Shown piece after piece: positions 29,984-52,072 of a DNA stretch of 64,000 nt. The notes beneath the pieces are model-generated. The model did not search any database, was not told the DNA's origin, and worked only from the letters and a program-made list of their open reading frames with translations. A program made the translations under genes and the position numbers. The stretch lies in the sequence record PQ758395, one strand, 5' to 3'. The stretch's first letter is position 1. Each line of letters opens with the position of its first letter. The stretch comes from Escherichia phage phita32.

Positions 29984-30403
29984 ATGAATATTAAATCTAA
30001 CAATCCCGCATACAGCTTTGATAACGCTTTTTGTCACGGCCCAGCCGCAAAAGGTTTTGAAATTGATGGTAAACTGGTTATTGTGAATGTTGACGGGGAA
30101 GAGGTTGCAGTATATCCGGTGGCAGACGTTAAAAGCCGTTTACAATGCCGCATTGATGTTACCGCATATCAGCTTGATCCGGTCCGCGTAGTTGCCCTGG
30201 TCCTGGAGGAAGAAATCAAAGCGATGCACCATAGTAACAGGTTTATTGGTGACGCGCAGGATAATATGAAGGTGTGCCGTTATAAAGTTAATGAAGTGCT
30301 TAAAGAATATGGATTTAAGGATCTGATGATCAAACGTGATGAAAAATTTCGTTATCGTAACGACCTGGCAAATCGAATCTATGAAATATACGAATCATTA
30401 TAA
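29984..30403 (+). CDS. hypothetical protein
   Basis: ORF with AAGAGGTAAA SD; last gene of the rightward array. Confidence 0.5.
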   Translation: MNIKSNNPAYSFDNAFCHGPAAKGFEIDGKLVIVNVDGEEVAVYPVADVKSRLQCRIDVTAYQLDPVRVVALVLEEEIKAMHHSNRFIGDAQDNMKVCRYKVNEVLKEYGFKDLMIKRDEKFRYRNDLANRIYEIYESL

Positions 30404-30421
30404 TTTTTTAACTGAATTATC

Positions 30422-30448
30422 AAGGGGCTTAAAGCCCCTTTCTTTTTG
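30422..30448 (+). terminator. rho-independent terminator
   Basis: AAGGGGCTT-t-AAGCCCCTT hairpin then TCTTTTTG. Confidence 0.7.
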
Positions 30449-30449
30449 T

Positions 30450-33020
30450 CTCCTCTTTTCCTACCACAAACGGCCAAGCCTGGCAAGTGGAATAATTGAC
30501 TAGCCAGCAATTACCAACACTGTACAAACATACATGTAAAATAGCTATTGCATAATATTTCATTGTGTGGTAGCAGGGCCATTTTTACCCGCTTTTCCTT
30601 CCAAAACTGCATGTAATTCCACTATTGCACAAAATTTAACCTGATGCACAATATCTCTTTCTTGTCAACAACTAAAAATCTTTATAAGTCATACACTTAC
30701 ATAACCACAAAAGCGTGTTCTACGTGAAAAATCGGGTATAACTATAGCCACTAAATTCCAGAATTCACGTAGCGTCACCATTCTATAGCCCGCTAAGTAT
30801 TTATTCCGACCATAGAATAACGGAATAGTCAATACCTGCATAAAATAATTATTCGTGTAAACTGCATAACATAAATCAGCTAGGGTGTCAACATTTTTCG
30901 TAAACAGCTTGAAATTATCACGGTGAGTTATCATAAGCAGATAAATCTTTAGTCGTCTAATGTTTACTGTACGTTACTATACTAACTGAAATCATTAGAT
31001 GACTAAGAGAAAGATAAGAAATCATTAACAATGCAATTGTTTTATTCGTAACAATAAGGCAACTATGCAAACGAATGGCATGGCGCGACGGAGTCGCGAC
31101 ATAATATAAAAGCAGTAACCATCACCCCCGTGATAGTTTGTCTGCAAACTATTAATCAGATCATAGTTGCCTTGTATTTAGTTAATCATGACATAAACTC
31201 AGGCATAGCCTTCGTCTCGAGGATGTTAACAAGCAAGGCAACTATAGATCTGCTAATAGTTGCCCTGCTTTTATATTATGTCATAGAAACACCCGAAGGG
31301 GTGACCAAAGGTCACCTGGCATAGCCAGTGAAAGATTATTAACTTGCTAATTGTCAACTTGTTGGCTGTTAGCTTGTCAATTGTAAACTAGTTAATTGTT
31401 ATCATGCAAACGAATGGCATGGCTTATCATCTATGCGTGAACTATCCAGGCGTAAACAGTCTATGTGGGAACAATCTATACGTGAACAGTGAAACATGAA
31501 ATAATAACAGTCGTTATTGTGGCGTATTGTGCTGCAGTATGTCATATTGTGTCAGACAAGTTTTTCTCCTCTTTGTCAAGTGCTGCATGAAAAATTTACA
31601 ATCTTGTATGGTAGCATTTTGCGGCCCTGTTTACATTCAGGAATGTATGTATAATCCTTGTTGTGTGGGCGTTTAGACGTCTGGACGGTCAGAAGTCTGC
31701 AGGTTAATATCTAATCTATTGGCTGCTAACTATATCCCCCACAAATAATAAGAAATATAATTGTTATATGTGTAAACCGTAACTCATGTTATCAATCCCT
31801 GTATGTATCGCCAGTGGTGCGCATAATGGGTATTATGTTAAATTGCCCGTAATGATAACTATTCTCACAATGATAGGTATTCTCATTCACCCCACAAGAT
31901 AGGTTGCAAATGTTGTGCCACTGTGTGAACGGCCTCACCTATTAATTTGCCTCACTGCCTCGATATTTGAGAATTATTATAAGAATGAAAAGTATTCCCA
32001 TTTCGTCCGCCTGGCAGCACTCCAGTCGCTACCGGCTCCTGACAGGGAAGCACTCCTGTAGGACAAGCACAAAATCGTGGTATAACTGGACCTGTTCAGA
32101 TATTTCTGGCTGGCTCTTCAGGTCTGTGTGGGAAAAGTCAACCTCTCTGGCGGGGCAGGGGATCATGACGGGAAAATTGCAGGTCAATTAAAAAATTTAC
32201 GTGGTGTATGAAGCGCTCTTCAGGTAAGGCATGTATTATGGGATGAAACCCTCTTCAGGCAATGATATTTGTGGGTGTGATATTTGCTGGAAAGCCAGAT
32301 ATGACGGGACTCCCGTCGGGGCAGGGGTAGTACAGACAGGGAAAATATGGGGATGTAGTTGGGGAAATTGATCAGACAGGTAGAGTATGGAATATGTTAC
32401 AAGTATGTTAACTATGGAGGGTGAATATCTGTAGGATTTGTGTGTAAAATCAAAGACTTAAGTGGTGTTGTGGTATTTTCTATAAATAATTCAAGTTTAA
32501 TAGGTAATATTTGTCTCTATCCGCTTTGTGTGGTAAACAGATTCAGATGAGATTGGTTTACAAGTGTATACATAATATACAAATTAAAGATACAAGAAAC
32601 CCCCCTCCCCCTTCAGCTACCATTCACCTTTTCCTCTGACTGGTACTTAAACACTTATTCAGACTCTTCAGGTTATCACCCATATATCATATGGCAGTGA
32701 CTGGTGTCCTCCGGCCCCTCTTTCGTCACCCGTCCGCTTCGCCATGCTAATGCCATAGCCAAATGTTCGGTTGTTCACCCTGTTCACTCAGGTGTATCTC
32801 CATACCCCTTCAAACCGAAGAGAACAGAAAACCCGAATTACTCGGTAAAAGAAAAGAGAAGAACTTAATTTTATCAGGATAGGCAAGAATGTCAAGGCAT
32901 GACTGCTCACTAAACAAGCAAACAGTCATGTGTGGTAGGTAAGTGATTGTGGTGGTAGGAAATTTAGTTGAAAGATGTGTTATAGGTGCTTCCAGCACTT
33001 TAGCCGGGCAACTAATTGTG
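30450..33020. other. 2.6-kb ORF-free, repeat-dense region between convergent gene blocks (candidate origin/regulatory or ncRNA locus)
   Basis: No ORF of 60 aa or more except one weak hit; repeat families GGCAACTAT/ATAGTTGCC (x4, 31050-31280), CTATRYGTGRAAC direct repeats (31431-31490), CAAACGAATGGCATGGC (x2), CTCTTCAGG (x4-5), GGGGCAGGGG (x2). Confidence 0.5.
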
Positions 33021-33022
33021 TG

Positions 33023-33238
33023 TCAGTCCAGTGGTTCATCACCTACTTCACTGAAATCGATGTTCATGGTCTCCTCCCAACCATCAATCTCAGCACCAGA
33101 GTAGAGATCTTTAGGACTCACTCCCAAAGCCTCAGCAACAGAATCCATGTTTAACACTTCTGGCAGGTACGATTCATCGAATTCGAGGTAAATCAGGCCA
33201 CGAGTGTTGTCAGCTCCACCAAATATTTCTATCTTCAT
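33023..33238 (-). CDS. hypothetical acidic protein
   Basis: ORF with AGGAGA SD; first/most distal gene of leftward block. Confidence 0.45.
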   Translation of the reverse strand: MKIEIFGGADNTRGLIYLEFDESYLPEVLNMDSVAEALGVSPKDLYSGAEIDGWEETMNIDFSEVGDEPLD

Positions 33239-33359
33239 GAAATCTCCTCTAGAAATGAGAGTGTGAACAGGGTTTTATACGTTCCAATGCACAGGAATTA
33301 TGCACGTTTGCCTCTTCAGGCCATGCTTTAGCATGAGGAACCTGTGTGGGCTCGGTGCT

Positions 33360-33572
33360 TCATAGTCTACCACCCCTGAACTCTTCGTGCTCAGGCATAA
33401 TAGAGAACCAGATATCTACGATGTCCTCCCACGTCAGGTCATCAGCCTCAGGATCCACCTGGAGCAAAGATGGAGAGTCTTCAGAATCGAAGTTTTCCTC
33501 TTTAACTGGCTCAGCCAAGGGACATATGGTCACTCCTTTGGATGTTTCTTCAGATGCATGTGTGTTGATCAT
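33360..33572 (-). CDS. hypothetical acidic protein
   Basis: ORF; ATGA overlap with upstream small peptide gene. Confidence 0.45.
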   Translation of the reverse strand: MINTHASEETSKGVTICPLAEPVKEENFDSEDSPSLLQVDPEADDLTWEDIVDIWFSIMPEHEEFRGGRL

Positions 33573-33670
33573 GTTCCACCCGTGAGTATTCCGGCAACAG
33601 CCGCTATGGACGTAATGATCATCAGGATCACCACTAAAACCTCGGATAATGTTCTCATTGTGTATCCCAT
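33569..33670 (-). CDS. small membrane peptide (33 aa, not in ORF track)
   Basis: ATG at 33670 downstream of minus-strand promoter; MGYTMRTLSEVLVVILMIITSIAAVAGILTGGT. Confidence 0.35.
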   Translation of the reverse strand: MGYTMRTLSEVLVVILMIITSIAAVAGILTGGT

Positions 33671-33690
33671 ATTCTACAAATTATGTGTGG

Positions 33691-33719
33691 ATACTATCAC
33701 TGGAGCGGTAATGTGTCAA
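33691..33719 (-). promoter_or_regulatory. sigma70-like promoter, minus strand (TTGACA-17-TAGTAT)
   Basis: Minus-strand -35 is the complement of 33714-33719, -10 the complement of 33691-33696. Confidence 0.55.
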
Positions 33720-33879
33720 CAGAAACGCCGCGAGGGTTTGGTTAAAATCCGAGCGTATGGTGATTTGGGTCAAAACGGACGTGCGTTCTCGCTACGCTCG
33801 AAAGAGGGATTTGTTTGTAGACCGTCCTTAAACGCTCTGTAACGAGACTATCTGTCCAAGGTATGCAATCGTGCACCAG

Positions 33880-33908
33880 ATAAAGAAAAGGACGCCACAG
33901 AGCGTCCT
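33880..33908 (-). terminator. probable rho-independent terminator, minus strand
   Basis: Minus-strand AGGACGC-tctgtg-GCGTCCT then TTTCTTTAT. Confidence 0.55.
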
Positions 33909-33932
33909 AGGTGTCTTAAATTTGATATTTTG

Positions 33933-34235
33933 CTATACCCATGAGGGTTTATCAAGGTTGGAGTAGCTAAAAGGTGTCAAAAGGTGATTGTCAAAATCTC
34001 TCAAACTATCCAGATCTTTTTCCTCGTCCTGACACCATCTGTGTCTACATTTATTGTTGTAGTGCATAGAATGCATAGCGTTCTGCAACTTAACAGGCAC
34101 AAGTGATTCAAGTATTGTTGGGTATGCCAGAACCACCTCAAACAGTGGAAACACATCGAAACTAAAGTCTACCTCTGCAAAGGTTGATGGCATGTAGGAG
34201 TATTTAGCCGCCTTTGTAGACATAATCCACCTCAC
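33933..34235 (-). CDS. hypothetical protein
   Basis: ORF in leftward operon. Confidence 0.45.
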   Translation of the reverse strand: MRWIMSTKAAKYSYMPSTFAEVDFSFDVFPLFEVVLAYPTILESLVPVKLQNAMHSMHYNNKCRHRWCQDEEKDLDSLRDFDNHLLTPFSYSNLDKPSWV

Positions 34236-34564
34236 ACAGGTTTGATAATACCTTTACCGAATAACTCTTCGTATCTAATCCTATCCGGATCCCACCCCTG
34301 GATAATTTCGAAGACAATATCCAACCCTGGGATGATCACTTCTCCAGTGTCAAGCTTAGCAAGAACAAAACCGGAAGGTTGAATGGTTTCCCAGTTACAG
34401 CGATCAGAGTAAAGTACTTCGAAAATATTACCAACCTCAATCCGTTTCTGTTGCTCAAGATGCTCCAGGTTCTCTTTCATGCGGATGCAGCGGATTTTTC
34501 GTGCAGGCCATAGACCGCCTGCATCACGTTCATTTAGCTCTTTTACAGTAATCGGTATACCCAT
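34232..34564 (-). CDS. hypothetical protein
   Basis: ORF, ATGA overlap. Confidence 0.45.
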   Translation of the reverse strand: MGIPITVKELNERDAGGLWPARKIRCIRMKENLEHLEQQKRIEVGNIFEVLYSDRCNWETIQPSGFVLAKLDTGEVIIPGLDIVFEIIQGWDPDRIRYEELFGKGIIKPV

Positions 34565-34620
34565 CTCAAATCTCCTTCATAGATAGTAAAAAAGAGGGGC
34601 CCAAGCTCCCCTCTTTGTCA

Positions 34621-35714: not shown

Positions 35715-36002
35715 TCATAGTGCCTCTAAGATTTCATACCCTTCGGGTCGGAATACAAGCCACTCCGTGGCTCCGTTTGGTCGATATGCTTTATACAAAA
35801 CAACCTGATCTCGGCACATACACATGGCTACATAGTTTTCATCCACACCTGCAGCCTGCATTGCATCTTCTTCTCCGGCAACTGCTTTGCTTACAACTTC
35901 CTTGGTAGGCAGGTGTGCGATCAGCTCGTCACCATCATTAATTCCAAAATGGCTGAGTTCTCCATTGGTATCTTTAATCTTAATCTTAACCAGATCTTTC
36001 AT
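35715..36002 (-). CDS. hypothetical protein
   Basis: ORF in operon. Confidence 0.45.
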   Translation of the reverse strand: MKDLVKIKIKDTNGELSHFGINDGDELIAHLPTKEVVSKAVAGEEDAMQAAGVDENYVAMCMCRDQVVLYKAYRPNGATEWLVFRPEGYEILEAL

Positions 36003-36331
36003 TGGTCTTTCTCCAGGTTCAAAGGCCCTAAGATTTCATATGCCAGATTAGAAGTTACCAGAGGGTCTTCTACATCTTTAGTATTATACCACCCGTGAAT
36101 AACCAGAGTCCCACTCTGTTTCATATCTAACTGGAACTGTTCTGCAGTTTCTTCATCCATCTCTAAGATCTCCATAAGGTATTTGATGTTAGGAAGGTAT
36201 GCAGCTGTTACAGTTCCCTCCACCAAACCTTCTGGCCAACCTACATCTGGATGACAAGTAGGAACCAGGTTGGTCAGCTTAATGGTGTACGCTTTTTCTG
36301 CACGAGCCTTCAGTAGCTGGTCAATCTTCAT
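35999..36331 (-). CDS. hypothetical protein
   Basis: ORF, overlapping stop/start. Confidence 0.45.
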   Translation of the reverse strand: MKIDQLLKARAEKAYTIKLTNLVPTCHPDVGWPEGLVEGTVTAAYLPNIKYLMEILEMDEETAEQFQLDMKQSGTLVIHGWYNTKDVEDPLVTSNLAYEILGPLNLEKDQ

Positions 36332-36681
36332 TATTCGTCCTCCTCTTCGGTGCCTGCTTCCAGTAATAAGTTAAGAATATCTTCTGCACAAGGCTCATAG
36401 AACTCTTGGCCTTCATTATCGATGATTTTGTAGTCATCTCCGCGAATAATCAGAGGATCACTCTCAAAATTATCGAGACCTTTAACAACGACAACACGAT
36501 CGATTGCCATCATTGTAAGAACTTTATCGACATCTTCCTCTGCTACACCATACTGCAGCAGAATGTCTTTGGTAGGAGGGACAGCATCCACCACAACACC
36601 GTTACCAAAACCTTCCGGCAAGTTAGCTAAAATATCTTCCGGAACCACATTCACATCAAAACCGGTAATTTCTACTTTCAT
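36331..36681 (-). CDS. hypothetical acidic protein (MK-V/I family)
   Basis: Starts MKVEITG, acidic tail EEEDE. Confidence 0.45.
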   Translation of the reverse strand: MKVEITGFDVNVVPEDILANLPEGFGNGVVVDAVPPTKDILLQYGVAEEDVDKVLTMMAIDRVVVVKGLDNFESDPLIIRGDDYKIIDNEGQEFYEPCAEDILNLLLEAGTEEEDE

Positions 36682-36942
36682 TTACAGCACCTCTTCGTCA
36701 ACTACTTCATAAAAATGGCCTGGGATTGCAATAGCGTTCTCACCTTCACCTACAAACACAGTTCCGTCAAGAATCAACATCATAAGAATTTCTGGAATAT
36801 CCTCTTCCGGAACGTTGCCAAAACCTTTAATCAGTGTGTAGGTTGGAAGATTTACCTCTAAGATGTCACCATCTTTAGAGCGGAAATCAACACCATCCTG
36901 AATCTCTGCCATTTCAAGGTTTTTCAGTTTAATCTTCATCAA
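36682..36942 (-). CDS. hypothetical acidic protein (MK-V/I family)
   Basis: Starts MMKIKLKN, ends EVVDEEVL. Confidence 0.45.
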   Translation of the reverse strand: MMKIKLKNLEMAEIQDGVDFRSKDGDILEVNLPTYTLIKGFGNVPEEDIPEILMMLILDGTVFVGEGENAIAIPGHFYEVVDEEVL

Positions 36943-37018
36943 TCAGTCTCCCGTCTTGTTAAGATGAAGGTATTATTTCACACAGAGTTGGTGTTGTCAA
37001 CACCTGTGTGCAAGAAAA

Positions 37019-37414
37019 TTACTGAAACAGTGCAGATAAATTACCTTCTGGTGGGAACTTATCTGCCAAAAACGGTGTTAGCACAGTAGCCTTCTGAAGA
37101 TCTGGGGTCCACTCGTTGTTCAGAACATCCCAGTAGTACGCAATGTTGCTGTGTGGGTGCCGCATTACGAACTTTTTCCCTTCGTAGTCATCTGAAACCT
37201 CTACAGAAGAAATAACAACAGAATCTTCAAGGGTTTCTTCATAGAAAGATCCGCCTTCAAATTTCCAACGAGATGCAAGAGCCCCTGCCTTGAACGCTGC
37301 AGATAACGGACTGTCGGCAAGAACATACATTTCTTGCACTCTGTCGCTGCGATCTTTGCTTCTTACGTTGTACACAGTATCTGAGCTATACTCAACACGG
37401 TATAGGCTTACCAT
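37019..37414 (-). CDS. hypothetical protein (paralog of 39222..39620)
   Basis: Shares HP(H/D)S..(Y/H)YW...WTP motif with 39222..39620. Confidence 0.45.
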   Translation of the reverse strand: MVSLYRVEYSSDTVYNVRSKDRSDRVQEMYVLADSPLSAAFKAGALASRWKFEGGSFYEETLEDSVVISSVEVSDDYEGKKFVMRHPHSNIAYYWDVLNNEWTPDLQKATVLTPFLADKFPPEGNLSALFQ

Positions 37415-37746
37415 TACCGCACCTCCTCAATAACTTCCACATCTGAACCCACCACAAATGCAAAAGGACAGGTTTCATGAAAGACATCCGGATCGCCGCC
37501 AAGCTTGCTAACAATTTCTCCACCACTAATAAACACAAGCTCACCGATATTAATCAGATTGCTGAAATAGTATCCATAATGATTAAAGAATGCAGCAGGG
37601 TCAGGTAGACTAGTGGCCTCAAGTTCTACATCGGTTGAGATTACTTTCTTATCATAACCTCTCGCCTTCTGAGATGCAAGATCTGCAGAATCTTCAGGCG
37701 ACCGGAGATGCACAGGAATTGTTTCACCAATAAAGCGTACTTTCAT
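37414..37746 (-). CDS. hypothetical protein (MKV family)
   Basis: Start moved from track 37773 (TTG) to ATG 37746 (MKVRFIGE); ends VEVIEEVR. Confidence 0.45.
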   Translation of the reverse strand: MKVRFIGETIPVHLRSPEDSADLASQKARGYDKKVISTDVELEATSLPDPAAFFNHYGYYFSNLINIGELVFISGGEIVSKLGGDPDVFHETCPFAFVVGSDVEVIEEVR

Positions 37747-37750
37747 ATTA

Positions 37751-38015
37751 TCACCCAACAACCATAGCTTCAAAAGGGGTCATGAACGAATAAACGGCAT
37801 CATCATCTGCTTCAGGGAATGCTCCCAAAGACTTCATGTCTGAGCCCTTGACAAATACAAGGTTTTGATCAAAAGCTTCTTGGGGGGTCAATCCGATACA
37901 TATTTCGTAGAATATCACCTACCTCTTCATCAAGAGGTGAGTATGCTGTGCACGTTTTTCCGATCAAGCTTTGAGAATCAGGGTATCCACCTGAAGTTTT
38001 AAAATAAACAATCAT
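37751..38015 (-). pseudogene. frameshifted member of the MKV small-protein family
   Basis: ATG 38015 with GAGGTGA SD opens a 46-codon ORF that stops; a second frame continues ..LVFVKGSDMKSLGAFPEADDDAVY resembling NVVFILGSDLITAGAPE of 39633..39887. Confidence 0.4.
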
Positions 38016-38106
38016 ATAGTATCACCTCTGGTAAGAGATTGGGATTCCTTTCCCACAAATAATTACAAATCTTCCTTATCGAGGAAGTATGCTAATCCAA
38101 GCAGGA

Positions 38107-38376
38107 TTATTCCTCTACAATCTCATACACATCAGGAGTTACAATCAACTCTTCTCCGTTACCCGGTGCAACAAACACCACCAAACCTTCAGGTGTGTGC
38201 TTTTTAGCCATTTCGATAACATCTTCTCGCAGAGCTGGCTCCATCAGATCAAAACCTTCACCCAGGGCATCACGAACCACCTTCATATAGTCAACTGGTT
38301 GTGCTTCGACAATCATGCCTTCAACCAGTCCACAGTTTTTGTCTGCCAGCTCAGTTTTGAATAATTTAATTTTCAT
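38107..38376 (-). CDS. hypothetical acidic protein (MK-V/I family)
   Basis: Starts MKIKLFK, ends VYEIVEE. Confidence 0.45.
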   Translation of the reverse strand: MKIKLFKTELADKNCGLVEGMIVEAQPVDYMKVVRDALGEGFDLMEPALREDVIEMAKKHTPEGLVVFVAPGNGEELIVTPDVYEIVEE

Positions 38377-38402
38377 TTAGAGGTCTCCTCAATTATTTGA
38401 TA

Positions 38403-38504
38403 TTAATAGCCGTAACCTAACACATTAACTACAACTGCGATTGCAAACATAATTTCAAAGCATGCAATCTCTACATTTGGGACTAATTTCTTAATCACGC
38501 CCAT
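38403..38504 (-). CDS. small hydrophobic peptide (33 aa, not in ORF track)
   Basis: ATG 38504 with GAGGTG SD 10 nt after the HPF stop; MGVIKKLVPNVEIACFEIMFAIAVVVNVLGYGY. Confidence 0.3.
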   Translation of the reverse strand: MGVIKKLVPNVEIACFEIMFAIAVVVNVLGYGY

Positions 38505-38513
38505 TGTAGCACC

Positions 38514-38831
38514 TCATTCTCCAAAGTCAATCTTTACTTTGCCTTTCCCCTTACCTTTCTTTCCACCGCATTTAGCCAGCTGACGTGCTGCAACATCTAC
38601 CATACGGTCAGTTGCCTCGTAAGCATCACTACCTTTAGCCTTGGCAATAACTTCTTTTCCAGAATTGTCAAAAATGAGCGCCATAACTCCCTGGTGATCA
38701 TTTTCAACTTTTACACTCACACGTGCATAGTTGGCAGAGGGGTGCAAACGCTCCAGCTTAGACATTTTGTGGGAAATGAAAGACACCATACCTTCAGTGA
38801 TTTCTACGTTGCCAGTGATTTCAATTTGCAT
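38514..38831 (-). CDS. ribosome hibernation promoting factor / RaiA (YfiA) family protein
   Basis: MQIEITGNVEITEGM..KLERL..VSVKVEN..AKGSDAYEATDRMVDVAARQLAK aligns along its length with E. coli HPF/RaiA (MQLNITGNNVEITEAL..KLEQY..VVLKVEK..AEGQDMYAAIDGLIDKLARQLTK). Confidence 0.75.
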   Translation of the reverse strand: MQIEITGNVEITEGMVSFISHKMSKLERLHPSANYARVSVKVENDHQGVMALIFDNSGKEVIAKAKGSDAYEATDRMVDVAARQLAKCGGKKGKGKGKVKIDFGE

Positions 38832-38878
38832 AACGTGTTCCTTTTAAAGAAGAGGGAACCAAACCCTCTTTGAAAACA

Positions 38879-38907
38879 ATGATACTAAATCTGAAGCGTT
38901 GTGTCAA
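38879..38907 (-). promoter_or_regulatory. sigma70-like promoter, minus strand (TTGACA-17-TATCAT) for the HPF gene
   Basis: Minus-strand -35 is the complement of 38902-38907, -10 of 38879-38884; AGAGGG..CCCTCT leader hairpin 38850-38869. Confidence 0.55.
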
Positions 38908-38913
38908 CAGTTT

Positions 38914-39204
38914 TTACAGCTTGTTGTCGATAGTTTTTAAAATATCCACAGCGAGATCTGCCATTTTTCGAACATACTCTGCAAACTCAACAGGATCCTT
39001 GATCAAAGAATTCACAGGGTCGTACCCTAGAGCGTTTAAAATGGCTGCAGCATCTACAACCTTCTCATCATTTGCGAAGATCTCTCCGTCAAACTTGTAG
39101 GTCCATTTTGAGTCAACCTTAGCAGAGCAGGGTTTGTCCATGCTTGTTACACCATCGTCTTTAAACTCTCCTGCGTTATCAATATTTAGAATTAAATCCA
39201 TCAT
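38914..39204 (-). CDS. hypothetical protein
   Basis: ORF in operon. Confidence 0.45.
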   Translation of the reverse strand: MMDLILNIDNAGEFKDDGVTSMDKPCSAKVDSKWTYKFDGEIFANDEKVVDAAAILNALGYDPVNSLIKDPVEFAEYVRKMADLAVDILKTIDNKL

Positions 39205-39221
39205 GGTGACACCTCACTGTT

Positions 39222-39620
39222 TCAGTTTAGCTTTTCTTCAACAACCCCATAACTTGGGGCAGAGTCAAGAGCTTTCTGGTTTAAAAGTGGCGTAGCAGAA
39301 TCTGCAAACGGTGTCCAAGTTTTTGTTCTGGCATTCCAGTAATGCTTCACTCTGGAATCTGGATGCACTATAACAAAAACTTTTTCACTTGTCAACACAT
39401 TAATTTCTTCTACACCCTTGCTGATAATTTCTCCGTCATAGCCCCCAGTCTGGTATCCTTCGTACCAGGTTCTTGCATAGGCATAGCCAGCCTGCCAGCA
39501 TGCAGCCTCCTCCGAGGTGGAGACTACGTAGAAGTCTTTCTCAAATTCTGGAATACGCCCTTGCTTTACGCTCCAAGCCCCGCGAATTTTCATTGTAACT
39601 TTAAACAGTTTATTTTTCAC
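39222..39620 (-). CDS. hypothetical protein (paralog of 37019..37414)
   Basis: Shared HPDS..HYW..WTP motif. Confidence 0.45.
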   Translation of the reverse strand: MKNKLFKVTMKIRGAWSVKQGRIPEFEKDFYVVSTSEEAACWQAGYAYARTWYEGYQTGGYDGEIISKGVEEINVLTSEKVFVIVHPDSRVKHYWNARTKTWTPFADSATPLLNQKALDSAPSYGVVEEKLN

Positions 39621-39632
39621 AACGGTTACCCA

Positions 39633-39887
39633 TCACAGCTCTACAATATCTGCATCTGACCCTACCCCAAAGGCATAGTAGGACTCTTCCCCGAAATAAT
39701 ATTCAGGTGCACCAGCGGTGATCAGGTCTGATCCCAAGATAAACACCACGTTGTGGCCTACATAACTGTGATGTTGCCGCACAGGATCATCCCACGGCAA
39801 CCCTTCAAAGTATACCGCAGGAGCGACCTTTCCCTTCAGGAAGGATTGTCCCAAGTAGACGTTAGAATCAAGAATTTTAACCTTCAT
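39633..39887 (-). CDS. hypothetical protein (MKVK family)
   Basis: MKVKILDSNVYLGQ..GKV..DLITAGA shared with 39877 and 43531 genes. Confidence 0.45.
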   Translation of the reverse strand: MKVKILDSNVYLGQSFLKGKVAPAVYFEGLPWDDPVRQHHSYVGHNVVFILGSDLITAGAPEYYFGEESYYAFGVGSDADIVEL

Positions 39888-40104
39888 GATCGTCCTCCAC
39901 TACCTCTACATCCTCGCCTAGGGCAAAGTTGTAGGTCCACTGACTGTCAAAGCAGTCCTGAGATGCACCAGCGGCAATAAGATCTGCTCCTTTTATTTTT
40001 AAAAGGTCAGGGTAATCTTCGTTAGGGACAGCAGTAAACACTTTTCCTACTAAAGGCTCCTGACCAATATAGAAGCTTGAATCTAAAACTTTAACTTTCA
40101 TCAA
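39877..40104 (-). CDS. hypothetical protein (MKVK family)
   Basis: MMKVKVLDSSFYIGQ..GKV..DLIAAGA, acidic tail VEVVEDD. Confidence 0.45.
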   Translation of the reverse strand: MMKVKVLDSSFYIGQEPLVGKVFTAVPNEDYPDLLKIKGADLIAAGASQDCFDSQWTYNFALGEDVEVVEDDHEG

Positions 40105-40388
40105 CGGTCTCCATCAGGTGGTTGTGGGACGTAAACACTGTTACGAATATCGTCCGCAGTATAGTAATAAGTGTCTCCAACCCTATCTCTGGCTGCAATG
40201 TACTCTGCTATACCAATAAGTGCCATTGATTTGGTGGCGTATCTTCCCAACTCGTTAGCTCCCCAGTAGAATTTAGACCAATAGGGAATAAGACCGAACA
40301 AATATACCTTTTGACGAACTTCCCAGTAAGTGCCTTTCCCGACAAGTTTAAACTCAACTTCACCACTGTTAATCTTTTTCATTATCAA
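40101..40388 (-). CDS. hypothetical protein
   Basis: ORF, overlapping stop/start. Confidence 0.45.
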   Translation of the reverse strand: MIMKKINSGEVEFKLVGKGTYWEVRQKVYLFGLIPYWSKFYWGANELGRYATKSMALIGIAEYIAARDRVGDTYYYTADDIRNSVYVPQPPDGDR

Positions 40389-40681
40389 TCTCCCTCCACC
40401 GTGGTTGGATTGTCAGTAAGAAATTGAGCATTAGCTGGAGGCACGCCTGACATTTTCCACACAACCATAAGTTTGTAACCAGGCACTCTATTAAGTGCAG
40501 ATCGAGTAGAGTTTGTGCACGTATATTTTCGCTTTCCAAACCCGTTCTCAAGCATGATCCAGTATCCCGTGTCTTTATCACCTGGAATTGGTAATCCCTC
40601 ATCGTCCACCCATTGAATGGACCATGGCACGATGGCTACAGCTTTATATTTAAACTTTTTAAACCACTCAAAAAGTTTCAT
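40385..40681 (-). CDS. hypothetical protein
   Basis: ORF, overlapping stop/start. Confidence 0.4.
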   Translation of the reverse strand: MKLFEWFKKFKYKAVAIVPWSIQWVDDEGLPIPGDKDTGYWIMLENGFGKRKYTCTNSTRSALNRVPGYKLMVVWKMSGVPPANAQFLTDNPTTVEGD

Positions 40682-40776
40682 AATTCAGCCTCGCATAGAC
40701 ATAATCACTATAAACAGGCAAACAATGAATCCGAATGCCACGCCACTCATAAACGTTAATATTGATGCAATCATAG

Positions 40777-40962
40777 TCAATCAGCCTCGCTTGGCAACTC
40801 TTCCACCTTAACATGCCGAAAAGTGTTACCGTAATGGTTGATCCATGACATCAGCTCACTTTCTTGCTCTTCCTCTGAGATGGACTCTCGAATGCTGACA
40901 AGTTTTAAGAAAACCCAATCACAATCTGAACCCATTCTACCAGACAGACAATAGTGCTTCAT
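40777..40962 (-). CDS. hypothetical protein
   Basis: short ORF. Confidence 0.35.
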   Translation of the reverse strand: MKHYCLSGRMGSDCDWVFLKLVSIRESISEEEQESELMSWINHYGNTFRHVKVEELPSEAD

Positions 40963-40981
40963 AAAAACCCTCCACCCTGGT

Positions 40982-41182
40982 TTAGAATACTGCCTCTTTT
41001 AATGATCCAAGGAGCAGCAGGTGTGAAATCTGATCCACATTCATGGTAGATTCAATCTCCTCTCTTTTGAAAGGTTCTCGGCAAAACAGTACTACATTCG
41101 GGTTTTCGCTACGCACTATATAATACAGATCGTTCAAATCATTCTCATAGTAGGTATTAAATTTAAGAATTTTGTCACTCAT
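40982..41182 (-). CDS. hypothetical protein
   Basis: short ORF. Confidence 0.4.
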   Translation of the reverse strand: MSDKILKFNTYYENDLNDLYYIVRSENPNVVLFCREPFKREEIESTMNVDQISHLLLLGSLKEAVF

Positions 41183-41241
41183 TTTCTAATCCTCTTCTTA
41201 GATTTTTGGGGAGAAACGCTTTCTGCAATACGGGACAAACG

Positions 41242-41466
41242 TTATTCTGAAGCCTTGCCTATTCCAGGTTTTTTGAGTGGATTATCTTTATGACCACAAT
41301 CCAATTGGATATTGGATACCTCTCCAACCTTGTAAGTCAATTCTAGCAAAAGGTTGTCGTCCTTGTCAAATGTTCTTACGATAAATTTTTTATCGTTCTC
41401 CTGAACTTCATATCTGGTACCTGCAGTATACAGCATGGTGCCATCAGCATAAGATATCCAGATCAT
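41242..41466 (-). CDS. hypothetical protein
   Basis: short ORF. Confidence 0.4.
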   Translation of the reverse strand: MIWISYADGTMLYTAGTRYEVQENDKKFIVRTFDKDDNLLLELTYKVGEVSNIQLDCGHKDNPLKKPGIGKASE

Positions 41467-41810
41467 TGAGCCTCCTTCTGCTGCAACAGCATTAACTCTT
41501 TGTTAGAGATCTTTACTGCTGTTTTTATTGTTCCATCTTTACGGAACCACGACCAGAACTCTACAGTGTCCCCACTATCAAGCAAAGCATGCCCATGGTA
41601 GAAGTCTTTGTCCTTGGACAGTTTCTCATCTATGTCTGCATCGACACATTCGTGATCCATAGCATTTTGCCTGAATGCATCGGTTATGCCAATGCACGCC
41701 TTGCTCTCAAGACTGGCATATCCGATATCTTTTAATTCAGTTTCCCAAACCCATGACCCTATAAAAGCCACAACAGCTACCCACATTAATATCGATTTAA
41801 TCTTTGACAT
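41463..41810 (-). CDS. putative secreted/membrane-anchored protein
   Basis: N-terminal hydrophobic MSKIKSILMWVAVVAFIGSWVW. Confidence 0.45.
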   Translation of the reverse strand: MSKIKSILMWVAVVAFIGSWVWETELKDIGYASLESKACIGITDAFRQNAMDHECVDADIDEKLSKDKDFYHGHALLDSGDTVEFWSWFRKDGTIKTAVKISNKELMLLQQKEAQ

Positions 41811-41870
41811 TCTCTCTACCTCTTTCTTAGTTTATTTAGTTATGGCACATCCTTTGTGCCTTATTGCACG

Positions 41871-42332
41871 CTACTTAAACAACAGTTCAAGATAGTGCAA
41901 AATTAACAGAAGTTGAATTACGCCTAGCACAACGGCAAGTATGTTAATCTTAGAATCAAAAAACTTCTTAACTTTTACCCTAAAAGGCTCCTTGATGTCC
42001 TTTACGATCCTATTTATAGATGATTTCATATCCCTGATTACCATCCTAAACATTAGGGACGGATCTTCCTTCTCTGTAACAGAATCGAAAACATACTCTC
42101 TTCGGTCATAAGGACCTCCAGATCTGCGTATTAACCTCTCCACAGAGACCTCGTACGACACACCTGTAACGTAATCATCTATGATAAGTAGTGACGGGTC
42201 TTTATCGTCCAAGGGTATCAAAGTTATCTTTCCAGATTTTGTTAAAATTTCTCCTTTTTCAAGCAAGGTGTACCAATGCTCTCTACCAAGATTGTTGAGG
42301 CACGTTTTTACATATTTAACAAACATCGTCAC
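41871..42332 (-). CDS. hypothetical protein with C-terminal membrane anchor
   Basis: C-terminal ILAVVLGVIQLLLILHYLELLF helix. Confidence 0.45.
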   Translation of the reverse strand: MTMFVKYVKTCLNNLGREHWYTLLEKGEILTKSGKITLIPLDDKDPSLLIIDDYVTGVSYEVSVERLIRRSGGPYDRREYVFDSVTEKEDPSLMFRMVIRDMKSSINRIVKDIKEPFRVKVKKFFDSKINILAVVLGVIQLLLILHYLELLFK

Positions 42333-42532
42333 CCCTCATCGCACGTCTGATATAACCACTCTATAAAATCTTGATACCATTCGCCCTCTGAGCGCTCCGT
42401 AGGCCAATAATCTTCACCCTCTCGTGCATTAAAATCTGAGTATTCAACTTTCCACTCCTTTACCAGCTCGTGGAGAAGGTTTTCAGCCTGCTCTAAAGAT
42501 TTATTTTTTGCCATTGCTGTCTCCTTTTTCAA
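42329..42532 (-). CDS. hypothetical protein
   Basis: short ORF. Confidence 0.4.
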   Translation of the reverse strand: MKKETAMAKNKSLEQAENLLHELVKEWKVEYSDFNAREGEDYWPTERSEGEWYQDFIEWLYQTCDEG

Positions 42533-42733
42533 GATAGTTATACATCAGAACTGCACCACCTAAGATGGCTACCAGTAACAATACCCCAGATAGCATCTCA
42601 ATAAACATGGCTTGAAACACTGGAAGGTCTCCCTAAATTAACGCACCATTTTAAATACATGCTCTTTTCCCATAAAGGTGCTTGGCTAAGATCTGCGTAG
42701 AACGCAATCTCTTTAAGAACAGTATAAACAGTT

Positions 42734-42970
42734 TTAGGTGCGGTATCCATCCCTACTCTCCTTTTTCTCCTTACGGATATTCTTGTAGTAATCAACTAGG
42801 CACATTATTACGATGAAGATAACAATAGGCCAAAAAGGTGCAGCAGTGATGATGGTGATAAAATCATCAAACTTCACCTTTCGTCTAGCCACGATGCATA
42901 CACCTGTCAAGAATACCGCTGTTATAACGGCTATCACCAGGTAACCTATTAGCACAACATTTATACTCAT
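42734..42970 (-). CDS. putative small membrane protein (two TM helices)
   Basis: VVLIGYLVIAVITAVFLTGVCIV and AAPFWPIVIFIVIMCLV helices. Confidence 0.4.
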   Translation of the reverse strand: MSINVVLIGYLVIAVITAVFLTGVCIVARRKVKFDDFITIITAAPFWPIVIFIVIMCLVDYYKNIRKEKKESRDGYRT

Positions 42971-43000
42971 TAGTCCTCACTTTGTAGGTTAAATTGTATA

Positions 43001-43534
43001 CTACAGATGGTTGCTGATGGTGTCAAGAAAATTATCCCGTTCTTTCTCAGAGTTTTCACGGGTGTATCTGAAAAACATATCGAGAATAACCTTATTGATA
43101 TATTCCAGCTCCTCTGTGTTCAGGTACTTAGCAGGATCTACAATGACATCCCAAATATCATACAGACCACACTCATGATATCCATAACGCCACTCAATTG
43201 TCAAGCTGAGCGGCAAATCTTTACCGTCACAAACAACCTTCCATCTACATATGTTGGTATCTGGGCGTATCTGTGCACGGTATACCTGTACAAAATCCAA
43301 TTTGAATTTGAGGTATTCGTCATGCAATTTAAGCACAAAGCTCTCGATTTGTGGAGACACTTTTGCAGCAAACTGTGCGTATTTGTATTTGCACTGGATG
43401 ATCTTTCTGCGTTTTGCAGTTAAATTTTTTGCCGCCAGTTGTTCTTCAGTGTATCTCCACCTACGATCAACAAACGCAACAGGGTCTTTGTCCCCATAGA
43501 GGTCTTCCCAGTTAATCAGAAGCATACCTGTCAC
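43001..43534 (-). CDS. hypothetical protein
   Basis: 177-aa ORF. Confidence 0.45.
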   Translation of the reverse strand: MTGMLLINWEDLYGDKDPVAFVDRRWRYTEEQLAAKNLTAKRRKIIQCKYKYAQFAAKVSPQIESFVLKLHDEYLKFKLDFVQVYRAQIRPDTNICRWKVVCDGKDLPLSLTIEWRYGYHECGLYDIWDVIVDPAKYLNTEELEYINKVILDMFFRYTRENSEKERDNFLDTISNHL

Positions 43535-43764
43535 TCCTCCACAACTTCAAGTCCTTTACCGCCTCGCTCTGGCAGATTACTTAAAGATAGGTAATACATA
43601 TAATCAGGAGAGATCCTGCCAGACTCTGCACCTGCAGATAGTAAATCTTTTCCCTTAACCATGACAACATTATCGTTTGCAGATAGCCGTTTTGCTTCCA
43701 CAATTTTACCAACGCAGTCAACCAAGGAAGGGTACCCTAAATCTGTAAGAAATTTAACTTTCAT
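43531..43764 (-). CDS. hypothetical protein (MKVK family)
   Basis: MKVKFLTDLGY..GKIVEA..DLLSAGA, ends LEVVEE. Confidence 0.45.
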   Translation of the reverse strand: MKVKFLTDLGYPSLVDCVGKIVEAKRLSANDNVVMVKGKDLLSAGAESGRISPDYMYYLSLSNLPERGGKGLEVVEE

Positions 43765-43803
43765 GCTACCTCCTACTTCTACCGTCCCTGGTAAGATGAA
43801 TTA

Positions 43804-44202
43804 TTACTGAACAGAGCGCGGGGCTGGGAAGGATAACTCTTCTAAAGAGAAGATTTCATTTCCCACAATCCATGTTGCCGGATCATCTGGGTTGACCGGA
43901 TAGATAATCATCACCTCGTCAGTGTTACATACCCGCTTTTTACCTGTGGAGTCATCAGCAACCAGCATGCGCGGTTCTTCAGAAATGCACAGGTAGCCTC
44001 CTCGGCCCACTGTTCCTTCCACAGGGTCTTGTCCTTTGATCACGATGATTATCTTCTCTCCTGAGGCGATATTACCTTGCACACTCACCGTTTGACCAAC
44101 CTTGGATGTGCCAATCTTAGTGACTTCGAACATTACATCCCGAATTACTGTTGCATAATCGCCAGACACTTTCTTACCTTCTTTAGTGATCTCAATCTTC
44201 AT
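43804..44202 (-). CDS. hypothetical protein
   Basis: Starts MKIEITKEG. Confidence 0.45.
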   Translation of the reverse strand: MKIEITKEGKKVSGDYATVIRDVMFEVTKIGTSKVGQTVSVQGNIASGEKIIIVIKGQDPVEGTVGRGGYLCISEEPRMLVADDSTGKKRVCNTDEVMIIYPVNPDDPATWIVGNEIFSLEELSFPAPRSVQ

Positions 44203-49250: not shown

Positions 49251-50222
49251 TCAGCAACCACAACTTCCGTAGTGCTTAACCCGTTCTATAACTTCCGCTT
49301 GCTTACCCTTATTGTAAGGACGGGAGTTAGGACTGGAAAGGTATCCAGACACACGTCGAATTACGCTGATCGTTCCCTCTTCATGGTTTCCACACTCTGG
49401 GCATACAAAGCCTTTAGCTGTTGCACTGAACTCACCAGAGAAACCACACTTGAGACATTTATCCACAGGCTGGTTGATACCAAAATACATAATGTGTTTA
49501 TATCCGAAATCAACAAGAGCTTCCAAAGCATCTAAGTTGTTTTTCAGATTTGGTGTCTCTACGTATCCGATGTTGCCACCAGAGGAGATCATAGCAAAAC
49601 CTTCCTCATACTCCCACTTATCAAAAGGAGAGCTATTGATCCATACTGGCTGATGGAAACTGTTGGTGAGATATTCATGCTCGTGCTTCAACACTTCAGG
49701 ATATTCACGATCCAGACAGGTTGCAGCTTTATAGCATAGACTCTCAGAAGGGGTGCCGTACAAGCTAAACGCTAGTCTACTTTCCTTCTTGTATCGCTCA
49801 CAAGCATCTCTCATGTGCTGAAGTATTCCAAGAGCTAAAGCCTTGTCACCCTCCCTGCCCAAAATCTGACAGGTTTCATACACACCAATATACCCAATAC
49901 TGATGGAAGCGTACCCGTCATAGAAGAGTTTATCAATACTCTCTTCAGGATCCAGGCGAGCAAGAGCGCCTTCACACCACATGATAGGGTTCTGCCCTGC
50001 CTTTGTTCCTTTTAGACGGTTAACCCTTACAAGGTGAGCCTCGTATGCAAGATCCAGGTATTCGTCAAGAACTGCAAAGAAATCAACACCTTCCGTTTTA
50101 GCTTTTGCCGCAATCATTGGCAGGTTAAGGCTAACAACGCCTAAGTTAAATCTGCCAAGGTATTTCTCCTCGCCTGTTACAGGGTCGCTATATTTCGATA
50201 AGAAACTTCTACACATTATGTT
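49251..50222 (-). CDS. nrdD: anaerobic ribonucleoside-triphosphate reductase NrdD, exon 3
   Basis: CRSFL..NLGVVSLNLP .. glycyl-radical RVSGYL and C-terminal Cys cluster, colinear with E. coli NrdD residues about 390-712. Confidence 0.8.
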   Translation of the reverse strand, partial: NIMCRSFLSKYSDPVTGEEKYLGRFNLGVVSLNLPMIAAKAKTEGVDFFAVLDEYLDLAYEAHLVRVNRLKGTKAGQNPIMWCEGALARLDPEESIDKLFYDGYASISIGYIGVYETCQILGREGDKALALGILQHMRDACERYKKESRLAFSLYGTPSESLCYKAATCLDREYPEVLKHEHEYLTNSFHQPVWINSSPFDKWEYEEGFAMISSGGNIGYVETPNLKNNLDALEALVDFGYKHIMYFGINQPVDKCLKCGFSGEFSATAKGFVCPECGNHEEGTISVIRRVSGYLSSPNSRPYNKGKQAEVIERVKHYGSCGC

Positions 50223-50993
50223 CAGGGTGGTTCGCAAGTCCACCCCCGCACCTTTACGTGCTGCTGCATGTTCCCATGCAGATCAGACTATATCTTCACA
50301 CTTAGTGTGTCTACCATTTCGAGTGTCATCGGCTTACACCCTACACCGCTACATTCATCACGGTTAGTCGTTAGGCATTTCGTAACAGAACTCGTAATCA
50401 TAGTTATTAGGCGCACCACGTTTCAGGATAGCAGATATTCTTTTTCTATCTACTCCTAAAACATCAGCACAACATCTCAGACTTTTAAAGTGGAAAACCT
50501 CACCAGTTAATTTGTTGGTGGCTTTCACACCGTGGCATCTTGTGTAAAAAGCATAACAGTTGTTGTTGTATCCTTCTTGCGTATTGTCTGGGCAAGCTCC
50601 CCACTCAAGGTTGTATACACTGTTATCTTTCCTGTTGTCCCCTTTGTGCTTAACATAGGGTAAATTGTCTGGATTTGGTAAGAACGCTTCAGCAACAAGT
50701 CTGTGAACCCTTAGGCAAACAGTCTTTTTGTTCTTGCGTATCCTAACAAGACGGTAACCTGTGTTTATCTCTTCCCACGAATGAATAATTCTTTCATTTT
50801 CGTAGCGGGTGCAATAAACATTGCCCATCTCGTCAATTTCATAACCTTCAAAATCACGAATTTGTTTTCTCATTTCAGGACTCCTCTTGGTCAGGAGTTC
50901 TGTTACGTTTAGCACGGGATTGTCCGTTCTGGAGTTTCCCCGTTTAGATAGATTTTACATGAGCAGTTATAGTTTACCCATGCTCGTTACTTT
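50223..50993 (-). mobile_element. group I intron 2 in nrdD carrying an HNH homing endonuclease gene
   Basis: NrdD frame breaks after KVTGSTDG and resumes at NIMCRSF with no start codon; upstream exon ends in U, intron ends in G (complement of 50223); junction uncertain by about 3 nt. Confidence 0.55.
50364..50915 (-). CDS. HNH homing endonuclease (intron-encoded)
   Basis: HNH_3 motif VKHKGDNRKDNSVYNLEW; C-terminal HTH SLRCCADVLGVDRKRISAIL. Confidence 0.8.
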   Translation of the reverse strand: MLNVTELLTKRSPEMRKQIRDFEGYEIDEMGNVYCTRYENERIIHSWEEINTGYRLVRIRKNKKTVCLRVHRLVAEAFLPNPDNLPYVKHKGDNRKDNSVYNLEWGACPDNTQEGYNNNCYAFYTRCHGVKATNKLTGEVFHFKSLRCCADVLGVDRKRISAILKRGAPNNYDYEFCYEMPND

Positions 50994-51275: not shown

Positions 51276-52072
51276 CTGTCTCCTCCCTGTGTTTCCACAG
51301 GGCCAGACTATCTCTTACTCTACTTCAATAAGATAATAACCCTTTATTGTGAGATGCTTACCTTCGGCATTTCCTTCGATAGCCCTGTGAACGTTACCTA
51401 CGTTCAAATTTAAGGCTTTTGCACAGGCGTAGAGTGAAGGATATTCACCCACCAAGATTTTCCCTTTGTATGCCTGCACTTTCCTATAGCACTTACCTGG
51501 ACAAAGTCCTGTTCGGAAAGCATGTCTCTTATTATCTTCCGGCAAAACCCACTCTAGGTTAGACGGATGATCATTCAATGTATTGCCATCTTTATGATTC
51601 ACTTCCCAATTTTCAGGGTCTTCTGGGACATCTGGCAAACAATACAAGGCAACAACCCTTGAGGTTTGGATTCGAATCTTTTTACCTTTGTGGTTGAAAG
51701 AGTACATATAACGGCGTTTAACATGCTTATTACCTTTTCCATAACCTCCCCACAATATTGGGTGTAGCATTCCACGTTTTCCGTATACGTTTCCAACTTC
51801 ATCAATCACATAGTTTGATTCTTCACCATTAAGAATGATCTTTTTCATAGAGCCTCTCCATTTCGAAGTTAGTATTTCAACTAACCCCTACACTACTTGG
51901 TTCAGAAATGTTTGTCAAGCATCTCTGCCTTTCGTTAGTCGTTACAACCGTTCCAACTCCTGTAAGAACTAGTCACGGGATTGGCATAGCTTTCGCCTTA
52001 GCGTTCCCCGTTAGCCGGATTTACCGACCCCTCTTATGAGGTTAGGAGAGTTTTACAACGGCCAGTTTGTTA
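51276..52072 (-). mobile_element. group I intron 1 in nrdD carrying an HNH homing endonuclease gene
   Basis: Exon 1 ends ..AACGGU; intron starts UAAACAAACUGGCCGUUG, whose GCCGUU can pair with the exon end including the U-G wobble (P1); intron ends in G (complement of 51276); exon 2 resumes QTPF. Confidence 0.65.
51315..51848 (-). CDS. HNH homing endonuclease (intron-encoded)
   Basis: HNH_3 motif VNHKDGNTLNDHPSNLEW; C-terminal HTH; in same frame as exon 2, separated by a stop. Confidence 0.8.
   Translation of the reverse strand: MKKIILNGEESNYVIDEVGNVYGKRGMLHPILWGGYGKGNKHVKRRYMYSFNHKGKKIRIQTSRVVALYCLPDVPEDPENWEVNHKDGNTLNDHPSNLEWVLPEDNKRHAFRTGLCPGKCYRKVQAYKGKILVGEYPSLYACAKALNLNVGNVHRAIEGNAEGKHLTIKGYYLIEVE

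Follow-up and report, generated by a model that had tools for sequence, protein, structure and literature searches.

Three families of small paralogous proteins in a leftward accessory block of Escherichia phage phita32, with a single-base frameshift in one member

In this work we asked how the many small, similar-looking genes in one block of Escherichia phage phita32 are related to each other, and what the frameshift found in one of them means. The window, i.e. the whole stretch of 64,000 nucleotides (nt) analysed here (record PQ758395), belongs to a Vequintavirus, an rV5-like coliphage. The initial annotation had grouped at least seven leftward genes between 36331 and 44202 into one expanded and diversifying family, on account of their MK(V/I)K start and acidic tail; it had set apart a second paralog pair by an HPxS..YW..WTP motif, and had taken the broken copy as a sign of ongoing decay. 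All open reading frames (ORFs) named there were present on the minus strand, at the coordinates given. The expansion is now formally supported, not as one family but as three (A, B and C, with 5, 5 and 2 members), and in this family structure we have high confidence. The picture that we consider rather probable is that of three old, separately duplicated families, lying in a conserved leftward accessory block and encoding host-specific accessory factors.

The ORFs of the block correspond to gp118-gp150 of rV5 (NC_011041, where the coordinate is approximately 137027 minus the window position), nearly all of them annotated as 'hypothetical protein'. The twelve family members are listed below with their rV5 names, their orthologues in Bas54 (phage MaxBurger, whose proteins share 94-100% identity with their counterparts in the window), their lengths in amino acids (aa) and the matches by which they were assigned; percentages are hhalign probabilities.

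43531..43764, minus strand: gp122 (Bas54_0166), family A, 77 aa; phrog_5009 at E 8e-36, hhalign to gp135 96.8%
39877..40101, minus strand: gp135 (Bas54_0159), family A, 74 aa, protein modelled; phrog_5009 at E 2e-38
39633..39887, minus strand: gp136 (Bas54_0158), family A, 84 aa, 11-nt overlap with gp135; phrog_5009 at E 3e-31, hhalign to gp135 99.2%
37751..38015, minus strand: gp142 (Bas54_0152), family A, broken by one extra base; phrog_13920, weak match to phrog_5009 at E 1e-4, hhalign to gp122 89.4%
37414..37746, minus strand: gp143 (Bas54_0151), family A, 110 aa; its own phrog_13661, hhalign to gp136 91.9% over residues 70-107
38107..38376, minus strand: gp141 (Bas54_0153), family B, 89 aa; leave-one-out hhalign 88.1%, E 3e-6, full length
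36682..36939, minus strand: gp145 (Bas54_0149), family B, 85 aa, protein modelled; leave-one-out hhalign 93.4%
36331..36681, minus strand: gp146 (Bas54_0148), family B, 116 aa, with an extra acidic C-terminal extension; leave-one-out hhalign 95.2%
35999..36331, minus strand: gp147 (Bas54_0147), family B, 110 aa, left of the range flagged initially; leave-one-out hhalign 86.8%, E 4e-6
35715..36002, minus strand: gp148 (Bas54_0146), family B, 95 aa, left of the range flagged initially; leave-one-out hhalign 95.8%, E 8e-9
39222..39620, minus strand: gp137 (Bas54_0157), family C, 132 aa; phrog_7379 at E 4e-74
37019..37414, minus strand: gp144 (Bas54_0150), family C, 131 aa; phrog_7379 at E 2e-66

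When 30 local ORFs were compared all against all by BLASTP, the seven genes fell into two groups, and the HPxS..YW..WTP pair remained separate. We also gathered homologues by two alignment-seeded searches and sorted them into sets of orthologues, between which hhalign comparisons were then made. The genes at 37414, 39633, 39877 and 43531 were thereby assigned to family A and those at 36331, 36682 and 38107 to family B, which gained two members overlooked before (35999-36331 and 35715-36002); a profile search of the 64 kb revealed no further member of either family. In PHROGs, gp135, gp136 and gp122 are filed under phrog_5009, gp144 and gp137 under phrog_7379, and each remaining gene under a PHROG of its own. 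The families were already on record there as unknowns, with the exception of the unification of family B.

No relationship between families A and B was detected by profile comparison. Their whole-family profiles matched with a probability of 5.8%, or 21% after addition of 24 distant relatives of A, over the first 28 columns only (MKVK...G.vv.A), and all 25 group-by-group pairs remained at or below 3.5%. The shared 'MK.K' start is uninformative; genes that begin with Met-Lys are frequent all along the block, and the gene at 36331 does not even fit the proposed signature, as it starts with MKVE and ends with EEEDE. We regard it as unlikely that A and B form one very old superfamily of small barrels that have the N-terminal hairpin and the C-terminal strand in common, with an insert between strands 2 and 3 that would occupy an equivalent position in B and in the longer A members (gp136, gp142 and gp143). 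The models of both families do open with a strand at residues 2-5 and close with a strand just before the acidic tail, the short hhalign match falls on this N-terminal part, and a few weak BFVD targets, e.g. A0A2Z4QD94 and A0A873WX66, are common to the A and B fold searches. However, pairwise A-B comparisons never rose above 4.6%, the family A hidden Markov model (HMM) scored gp146 of family B at E = 4, the conserved GxDLIxAGA motif of A has no counterpart in B, and small beta-hairpin starts as well as hydrophobic or acidic last strands are common.

The resemblance could alternatively be a by-product of gene packing and composition, with Met-Lys favouring translation and a 3' GAG-GAG serving the next gene, and this we consider decidedly improbable. 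In five of the seven genes, namely gp122, gp135, gp143, gp145 and gp146, the tail codons (GAGGAG, GGAGGA, GAAGAGG) are located 5-12 nt upstream of the following start codon and therefore also act as the Shine-Dalgarno sequence of the next gene; tails rich in E, D or G occur in unrelated abutting neighbours too (e.g. CDEG in gp127 and VEGD in gp133), and the frequency of MK starts across the block points the same way. Against this, gp141, gp136 and gp148 carry an acidic tail with no abutting next gene, distant A relatives in other phages retain E-[VI]-[VI]-E-E, and overall the last 7 residues show little difference in acidic content (1.87 vs 1.44). Moreover, packing addresses just the two features that link A to B, whereas the similarity within A, B and C spans the whole length and is statistically supported. 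Profile comparisons thus rule out packing and composition as the full explanation, leaving it for the A-B resemblance, which the doubling of the tail as a Shine-Dalgarno sequence explains only in part.

Within family A, pairwise hhalign values ranged from 80 to 99%. The three genes initially noticed to share GKV..DLI.AGA, namely gp135, gp136 and gp122, do belong together: they all match phrog_5009 (E 2e-38 to 3e-31) and align with each other at 91.0-99.2%, the lowest value being that of gp136 with gp122. The most variable member is gp136, with 75% nt identity to YP-6. For gp143 the alignment to the family is clear in the C-terminal half only, it has no direct match to phrog_5009, and the family A HMM that matches it includes its own orthologue. 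In an alignment of 24 sequences the MKVK strand, the GK[VI] strand, the GxDLIxAGA segment, the Y-x-F strand and the E-[VI]-[VI]-E end were conserved; these motifs also occur in the distant relatives P0094-P0121 and are degenerate in gp142 and gp143. The family A protein, about 75 residues long, is predicted from the gp135 model to be a five-strand SH3-like beta-barrel, in which G-x-D-L-I-x-A-G-A would form a turn and a short helix after strand 3, and the tail residues would make up the final strand (65-69), beyond which the acidic end is disordered.

An exhaustive search with the family A profile returned 39 cluster representatives, including full-length proteins of 63-86 aa and proteins with 2-3 tandem domains, and the distant relatives match phrog_5009 and phrog_13367. 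A 4388-aa protein, P0093, was set aside as probably spurious, being a YDG/MBG surface protein with a partial match; likewise, a similarity between ORF143 and gp123 (E 0.002 in a tiny database) was dropped after a proper pairwise test gave E 0.56. By tblastn, relatives were found in Krischvirus (RB49, Phi1), in Proteus, Morganella, Aeromonas and Klebsiella phages and in small siphoviruses, and homologues 42-51% identical to gp122 in temperate phages of the mEp021 type; the copy of mEp021 itself is flanked by Q and the holin gene. In Phi1, two adjacent copies are clear (E < 2e-5) and two more are weaker, in a cluster of small hypothetical ORFs between dam/nrdC/gene 49 and tk/rI, and Proteus phage RS51pmB has 2 copies. 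A search for related loci with gp135 alone as the query gave one locus, in IMG/VR. Family A is thus part of a phrog_5009 superfamily whose members, often several side by side, occur in enterobacterial phages of both virulent and temperate lifestyle.

Family B, with five copies, four of them in tandem, was harder to see, as it is split over five PHROGs and direct pairwise hhalign values are weak (13-47%). Its unity became clear when each group was compared with the profile of the other four: these leave-one-out values were 86.8-95.8% (E 4e-6 to 8e-9, over 61-81 columns), while the controls, i.e. reversed sequences and all six family A groups, gave at most 4.6%. The AlphaFold2 model of gp145 (predicted local distance difference test score, pLDDT, 85.2) shows the order strand-strand-helix-helix-strand-strand-strand, i.e. 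a putative barrel with helices between strands 2 and 3, and its sole good viral match is an uncharacterised protein of Vibrio phage Vc1. The member with the acidic extension, gp146, has an isoelectric point (pI) of 4.05 and a net charge of -22. Sequence relatives of family B were found in Vequintavirus only; gp141 occurs in 117 records, all in the band of at least 95% identity, and at least 96.6% aa identity among the matches listed. The name 'sigma 54 modulation factor', given to gp141 in many GenBank records, seems to have been transferred from the true HPF gene, which lies two genes upstream; gp141 itself does not match Pfam S30AE. The rV5 record splits the gp148 gene into overlapping ORF153 and ORF154 by two extra bases (indels at window positions 35755 and 35829); the window and the other relatives inspected have an intact ORF of 288 base pairs (bp) at 35715-36002, and the rV5 record probably carries errors or lesions at this gene.

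The pairing of the two HPxS..YW..WTP genes was borne out: gp144 and gp137 are 28% identical over 119 residues (BLASTP E 2e-11) and make up family C, for which a word-indexed homologue search returned Vequintavirus orthologues only. Each C gene directly follows a pair of A genes, so that the order A-A-C occurs twice, as gp142-gp143-gp144 (37019-38015) and gp135-gp136-gp137 (39222-40101). This hints at an old block duplication. Alternatively, the A pairs may have arisen by tandem duplication or gene conversion, as gp135 and gp136 are each other's closest relatives.

The notion that the group is decaying or diversifying was not supported by comparison with related phages. An 8.3-kb query around these genes shares 97% identity with FFH2 and rV5; it matched 121 phage records, with at least 80% query cover in 114. 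Among these records are 18 (MG0656xx) titled 'Campylobacter phage', which are unannotated rV5-like coliphage genomes, 94-97% identical to the window among the matches listed; mislabelling or contamination is the probable reason. In word-indexed searches, A and B turned up almost exclusively on contigs of Vequintavirus size (~135 kb). As for copy number, the most divergent relative (L004, with 78-90% DNA identity gene by gene) retains all 5 A and all 5 B genes in the same order; therefore the duplications should be older than the genus, and the copies have been maintained. Against seven relatives the rate of nonsynonymous substitution (dN) was well below the synonymous rate (dS) for all members, and against L004 dN/dS was 0.03-0.15 for every member, which does not support diversification in the sense of positive selection and matches the values of the neighbouring HPF and Dam genes. 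By these comparisons, the families are conserved across the genus and under purifying selection.

Where variation does exist, its source is deletion or recombination between paralogs and not decay by point mutation. The viable phage EduardKellenberger (Bas59) lacks gp136 through gp124, about 3.5 kb, and has, at 6624-7091 of its locus L006, a 468-bp ORF in which the beginning of gp123 is fused to the end of gp137. In three independent samples (loci L015-L017; window 39633-40101) a single 70-aa gp135/gp136 hybrid replaces both genes, with the junction just after an 11-nt identity, CCGCTGGTGCA, which is common to the paralogs and encodes the AAGA motif. Two metagenome contigs (L018 and L019; cf. 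L013 5001-5228) carry at the gp135 position another hybrid, composed of an mEp021-type N-terminal half and the gp135 C-terminal half. This suggests exchange between copies of virulent and temperate phages; these contigs are short (0.8-1.6 kb), and an assembly chimera is possible.

The broken copy, gp142, has to be seen against this background. Its lesion was located by alignment to rV5:

37882..37887, minus strand: run of six C (C6) with a +1 insertion (C5 in relatives)

The frameshift is present, as initially noted, and so is the good Shine-Dalgarno sequence of the gene, GAGGTGAT; the proposed pieces of 46 and 27 codons were not borne out. The N-terminal piece has 44 homologous codons, after which it runs into PRSF and a stop, and the other 43 codons lie in another frame. 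When one C is removed, the ORF encodes a protein identical to the intact gp142 of rV5 (87 aa), and one synonymous difference is left. In the allele comparison, made on the best 60 of 118 related records, the span at this site was 264 bp everywhere except in V18 (263 bp), no record matched at 100%, and the best match differed from the window by the gap only. Among the ten genomes inspected directly, eight had an intact gp142, and within the genus the dN/dS of the gene is 0.04-0.16. We saw neither a lesion shared by a lineage, nor further lesions, nor relaxed selection, so that the lesion is a singleton homopolymer indel and the claim of ongoing decay falls. Scans of viral, genome and metagenome collections for the C6 allele pattern returned none, which carries little weight since the C5 control in IMG/VR was also zero; the E. 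coli genome collection had no match to the region, and a truncated gp142 product is not on record in the gene-position index.

The genome of V18 has, within 10 kb, single-base gaps in the homologues of gp150, gp143 and gp142, the last being a different loss, within a run of T, and this distribution has the look of sequencing error.

There is an even chance that the frameshift in the window is likewise a sequencing or assembly error in a homopolymer, the phage itself having an intact gp142. This is suggested by the nature of the lesion (one base added to a C5 run), by its absence from the related records compared, by the complete identity of the repaired protein to that of rV5 with no second lesion, by the strong purifying selection on gp142, and by the several error-like gaps in the same block of the deposited V18 genome. 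On the other hand, no other gene-breaking indel relative to rV5 was seen in the well-aligned coding part of the window at 32-64 kb, and therefore the assembly is not generally error-prone; besides, gp142 tolerates transposon insertions on K-12, at reduced frequency, and thus a real loss during laboratory propagation is plausible. Residual sequencing error and a very recent loss on a permissive host were consequently rated about equal. Programmed frameshifting or transcriptional slippage at the C6 run was rejected, as the run is absent from relatives. Six C residues are also short for slippage.

Evidence on function came from the published transposon-insertion map of the Vequintavirus Bas54 (bioRxiv 10.1101/2025.11.20.689424). 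On K-12 all twelve family genes are classed there as Non-essential, except for the orthologues of gp143, gp142 and gp141, which are 'Intermediate' (69-73% of TA sites hit). On the uropathogenic strain CFE311, insertion counts fall to zero in bas54_0150 (gp144), 0151 (gp143) and 0152 (gp142), with log2 fold changes of -6.8, -6.2 and -7.2, respectively, and the second C gene, bas54_0157 (gp137), shows -2.1 (q shown as 0 in all four cases; bioRxiv 10.1101/2025.11.20.689424). The gp142-gp143-gp144 orthologues are thus required on one clinical E. coli strain, although polarity may contribute to this. The accessory nature proposed for these genes in the initial annotation agrees with the K-12 classes, with the absence of gp135 and gp136 from the viable EduardKellenberger and with their fusion in the three samples.

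Taken together, these data are compatible with small, mostly acidic, soluble proteins that would serve as host-specific accessory or counter-defence factors, most likely by binding and neutralising host proteins, e.g. components of immunity, with paralogs kept since each may serve a different target or host. Our confidence in this mechanism, host-specific action by protein binding, is low to moderate. Several points weigh against it. The other A and B genes are unaffected on CFE311, and the authors of the map validated only bas54_0063 and bas54_0140 (vs DS-28) and did not discuss 0150-0152 (bioRxiv 10.1101/2025.11.20.689424). Of the defence systems predicted in CFE311, two have been cloned to date, DS-28 and Gao_Tmn. 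Polarity or broken translational coupling in gp142-gp143-gp144 could be responsible, so that maybe one gene alone is needed; the upstream genes HPF and gp140 show no depletion of insertions on CFE311, which argues against polarity over a long range. The strain-specific need could also be metabolic or receptor-related and not immune, and no member has a match in Pfam, NCBIfam or PDB sequences. Finally, sheets Data S6 and S7 of supplementary file 9 (K-12 vs CFE303 and K-12 vs CFE311) are numerically identical, and the sheet named after CFE303 has a console line that names sample 311; hence the assignment to CFE311 rests on this line and on the two validated genes, and the deposited file apparently lacks the CFE303 table. 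As to the mode of action, it is very improbable that the A proteins bind nucleic acids or ribosomes in the manner of KOW, Tudor or Sm domains and work with the neighbouring ribosome hibernation factor: a phage HPF gene does lie within the block, but the Pfam KOW family is not matched, the members are acidic (pI 4.05-4.7; gp122, 5.4), which argues against nucleic-acid binding, and insertions in HPF are not depleted where those in gp142-gp144 are.

The view of accessory, host-specific proteins that we favour can be carried further, to a possibility that we consider doubtful: gp142-gp143-gp144 (A-A-C) might constitute a new counter-defence or host-range module that some pathogenic E. coli make necessary, the widespread phrog_5009 barrel might be a general immunity-inhibitor scaffold with paralogs, including gp135-gp136-gp137, directed at different systems, and the phage of the window, its host range narrowed, might represent a natural knockout of gp142. 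If this were true, the presence and integrity of gp142-gp144, including single-base slips, would bear on host range, and family A would be an entry point to a superfamily across many enterobacterial phages. Vequintaviruses are common candidates for phage therapy and for the biocontrol of E. coli O157. Some two thirds of the genes in these phages lack a known function. The finding itself is modest, i.e. conserved paralogs and a singleton homopolymer indel, and the interesting lead is the link to the transposon data. Sorting twelve 'hypothetical proteins' into three families with predicted folds provides a rational set for knockouts, and three of the twelve are tied to a strain-specific requirement in existing data.

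The block as a whole, in which every gene is transcribed leftward from the minus strand, lies between the genes for a ClpP-like protease and Dam methylase and a strand-switch region. Its other features of note are the following, the two promoters being the best sigma-70 consensus matches here:

36972..37000, minus strand: sigma-70-like promoter upstream of gp145, 11/12 consensus match, annotated in rV5 as promoter 'P150'
38879..38907, minus strand: sigma-70-like promoter upstream of the HPF gene, 11/12 consensus match, annotated in rV5 as promoter 'P144', heading HPF-gp140-gp141-(gp142-gp144)
38514-38831: HPF gene, inside the block, PF02482 at E 3e-12

At ~30000-34600, where transcription changes strand, the G+C content drops to 0.38 and the GC skew flips sign, and a strong bidirectional terminator hairpin lies at 34591-34616. 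The matching intergenic region of Bas54, of about 2 kb, tolerated zero transposon insertions in the HIDEN-SEQ paper (bioRxiv 10.1101/2025.11.20.689424). Farther along the window, among nucleotide-metabolism genes, two stretches of ~0.8 kb each (50178-50976 and 51276-52074) are absent from the aligned rV5 sequence and are possible insertions, such as of a homing endonuclease.

Among known systems, the nearest in sequence are the PHROGs themselves. Both C genes match phrog_7379 over its full length, and the annotation of the rV5 record notes a likeness of family C to a protein of Listeria phage A118. In the phrog_5009 and phrog_13367 group, gp135, gp136 and gp122 match phrog_5009 end to end, with the same size and motifs, whereas gp142 (13920) and gp143 (13661) are filed apart and are joined to it only via profile-profile comparison; a function is recorded for none of these groups. 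In predicted structure, family A may resemble SH3-like barrels, such as SH3, the KOW domain of Spt5/NusG, PsaE and the integrase C-terminal domain, the modelled five-strand barrel being equal in size, with ~50-58 residues superposing at 2.6-3.8 A, while Pfam, including SH3 and KOW, gave no family for any member at E up to 1. The relatives of family A in other phages sit among small ORFs (Phi1), as in the plastic regions of large virulent phages, or between Q and the lysis genes (mEp021), as in the 'moron' slots of temperate phages. In T4-like genomes such stretches are known for small non-essential ORFs. Compared with these plastic arrays, the Vequintavirus block is unusually stable, as the 114 of 121 genomes that cover at least 80% of it do so at ~90-97% identity. 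With respect to function, the closest parallel is provided by the counter-defence genes bas54_0063 (MoxR) and bas54_0140, with which the gp142-gp144 orthologues share the same zero-count signature in the same screen and on the same strain; those two genes have been paired with DS-28, whereas for gp142-gp144 the signature may reflect polarity.

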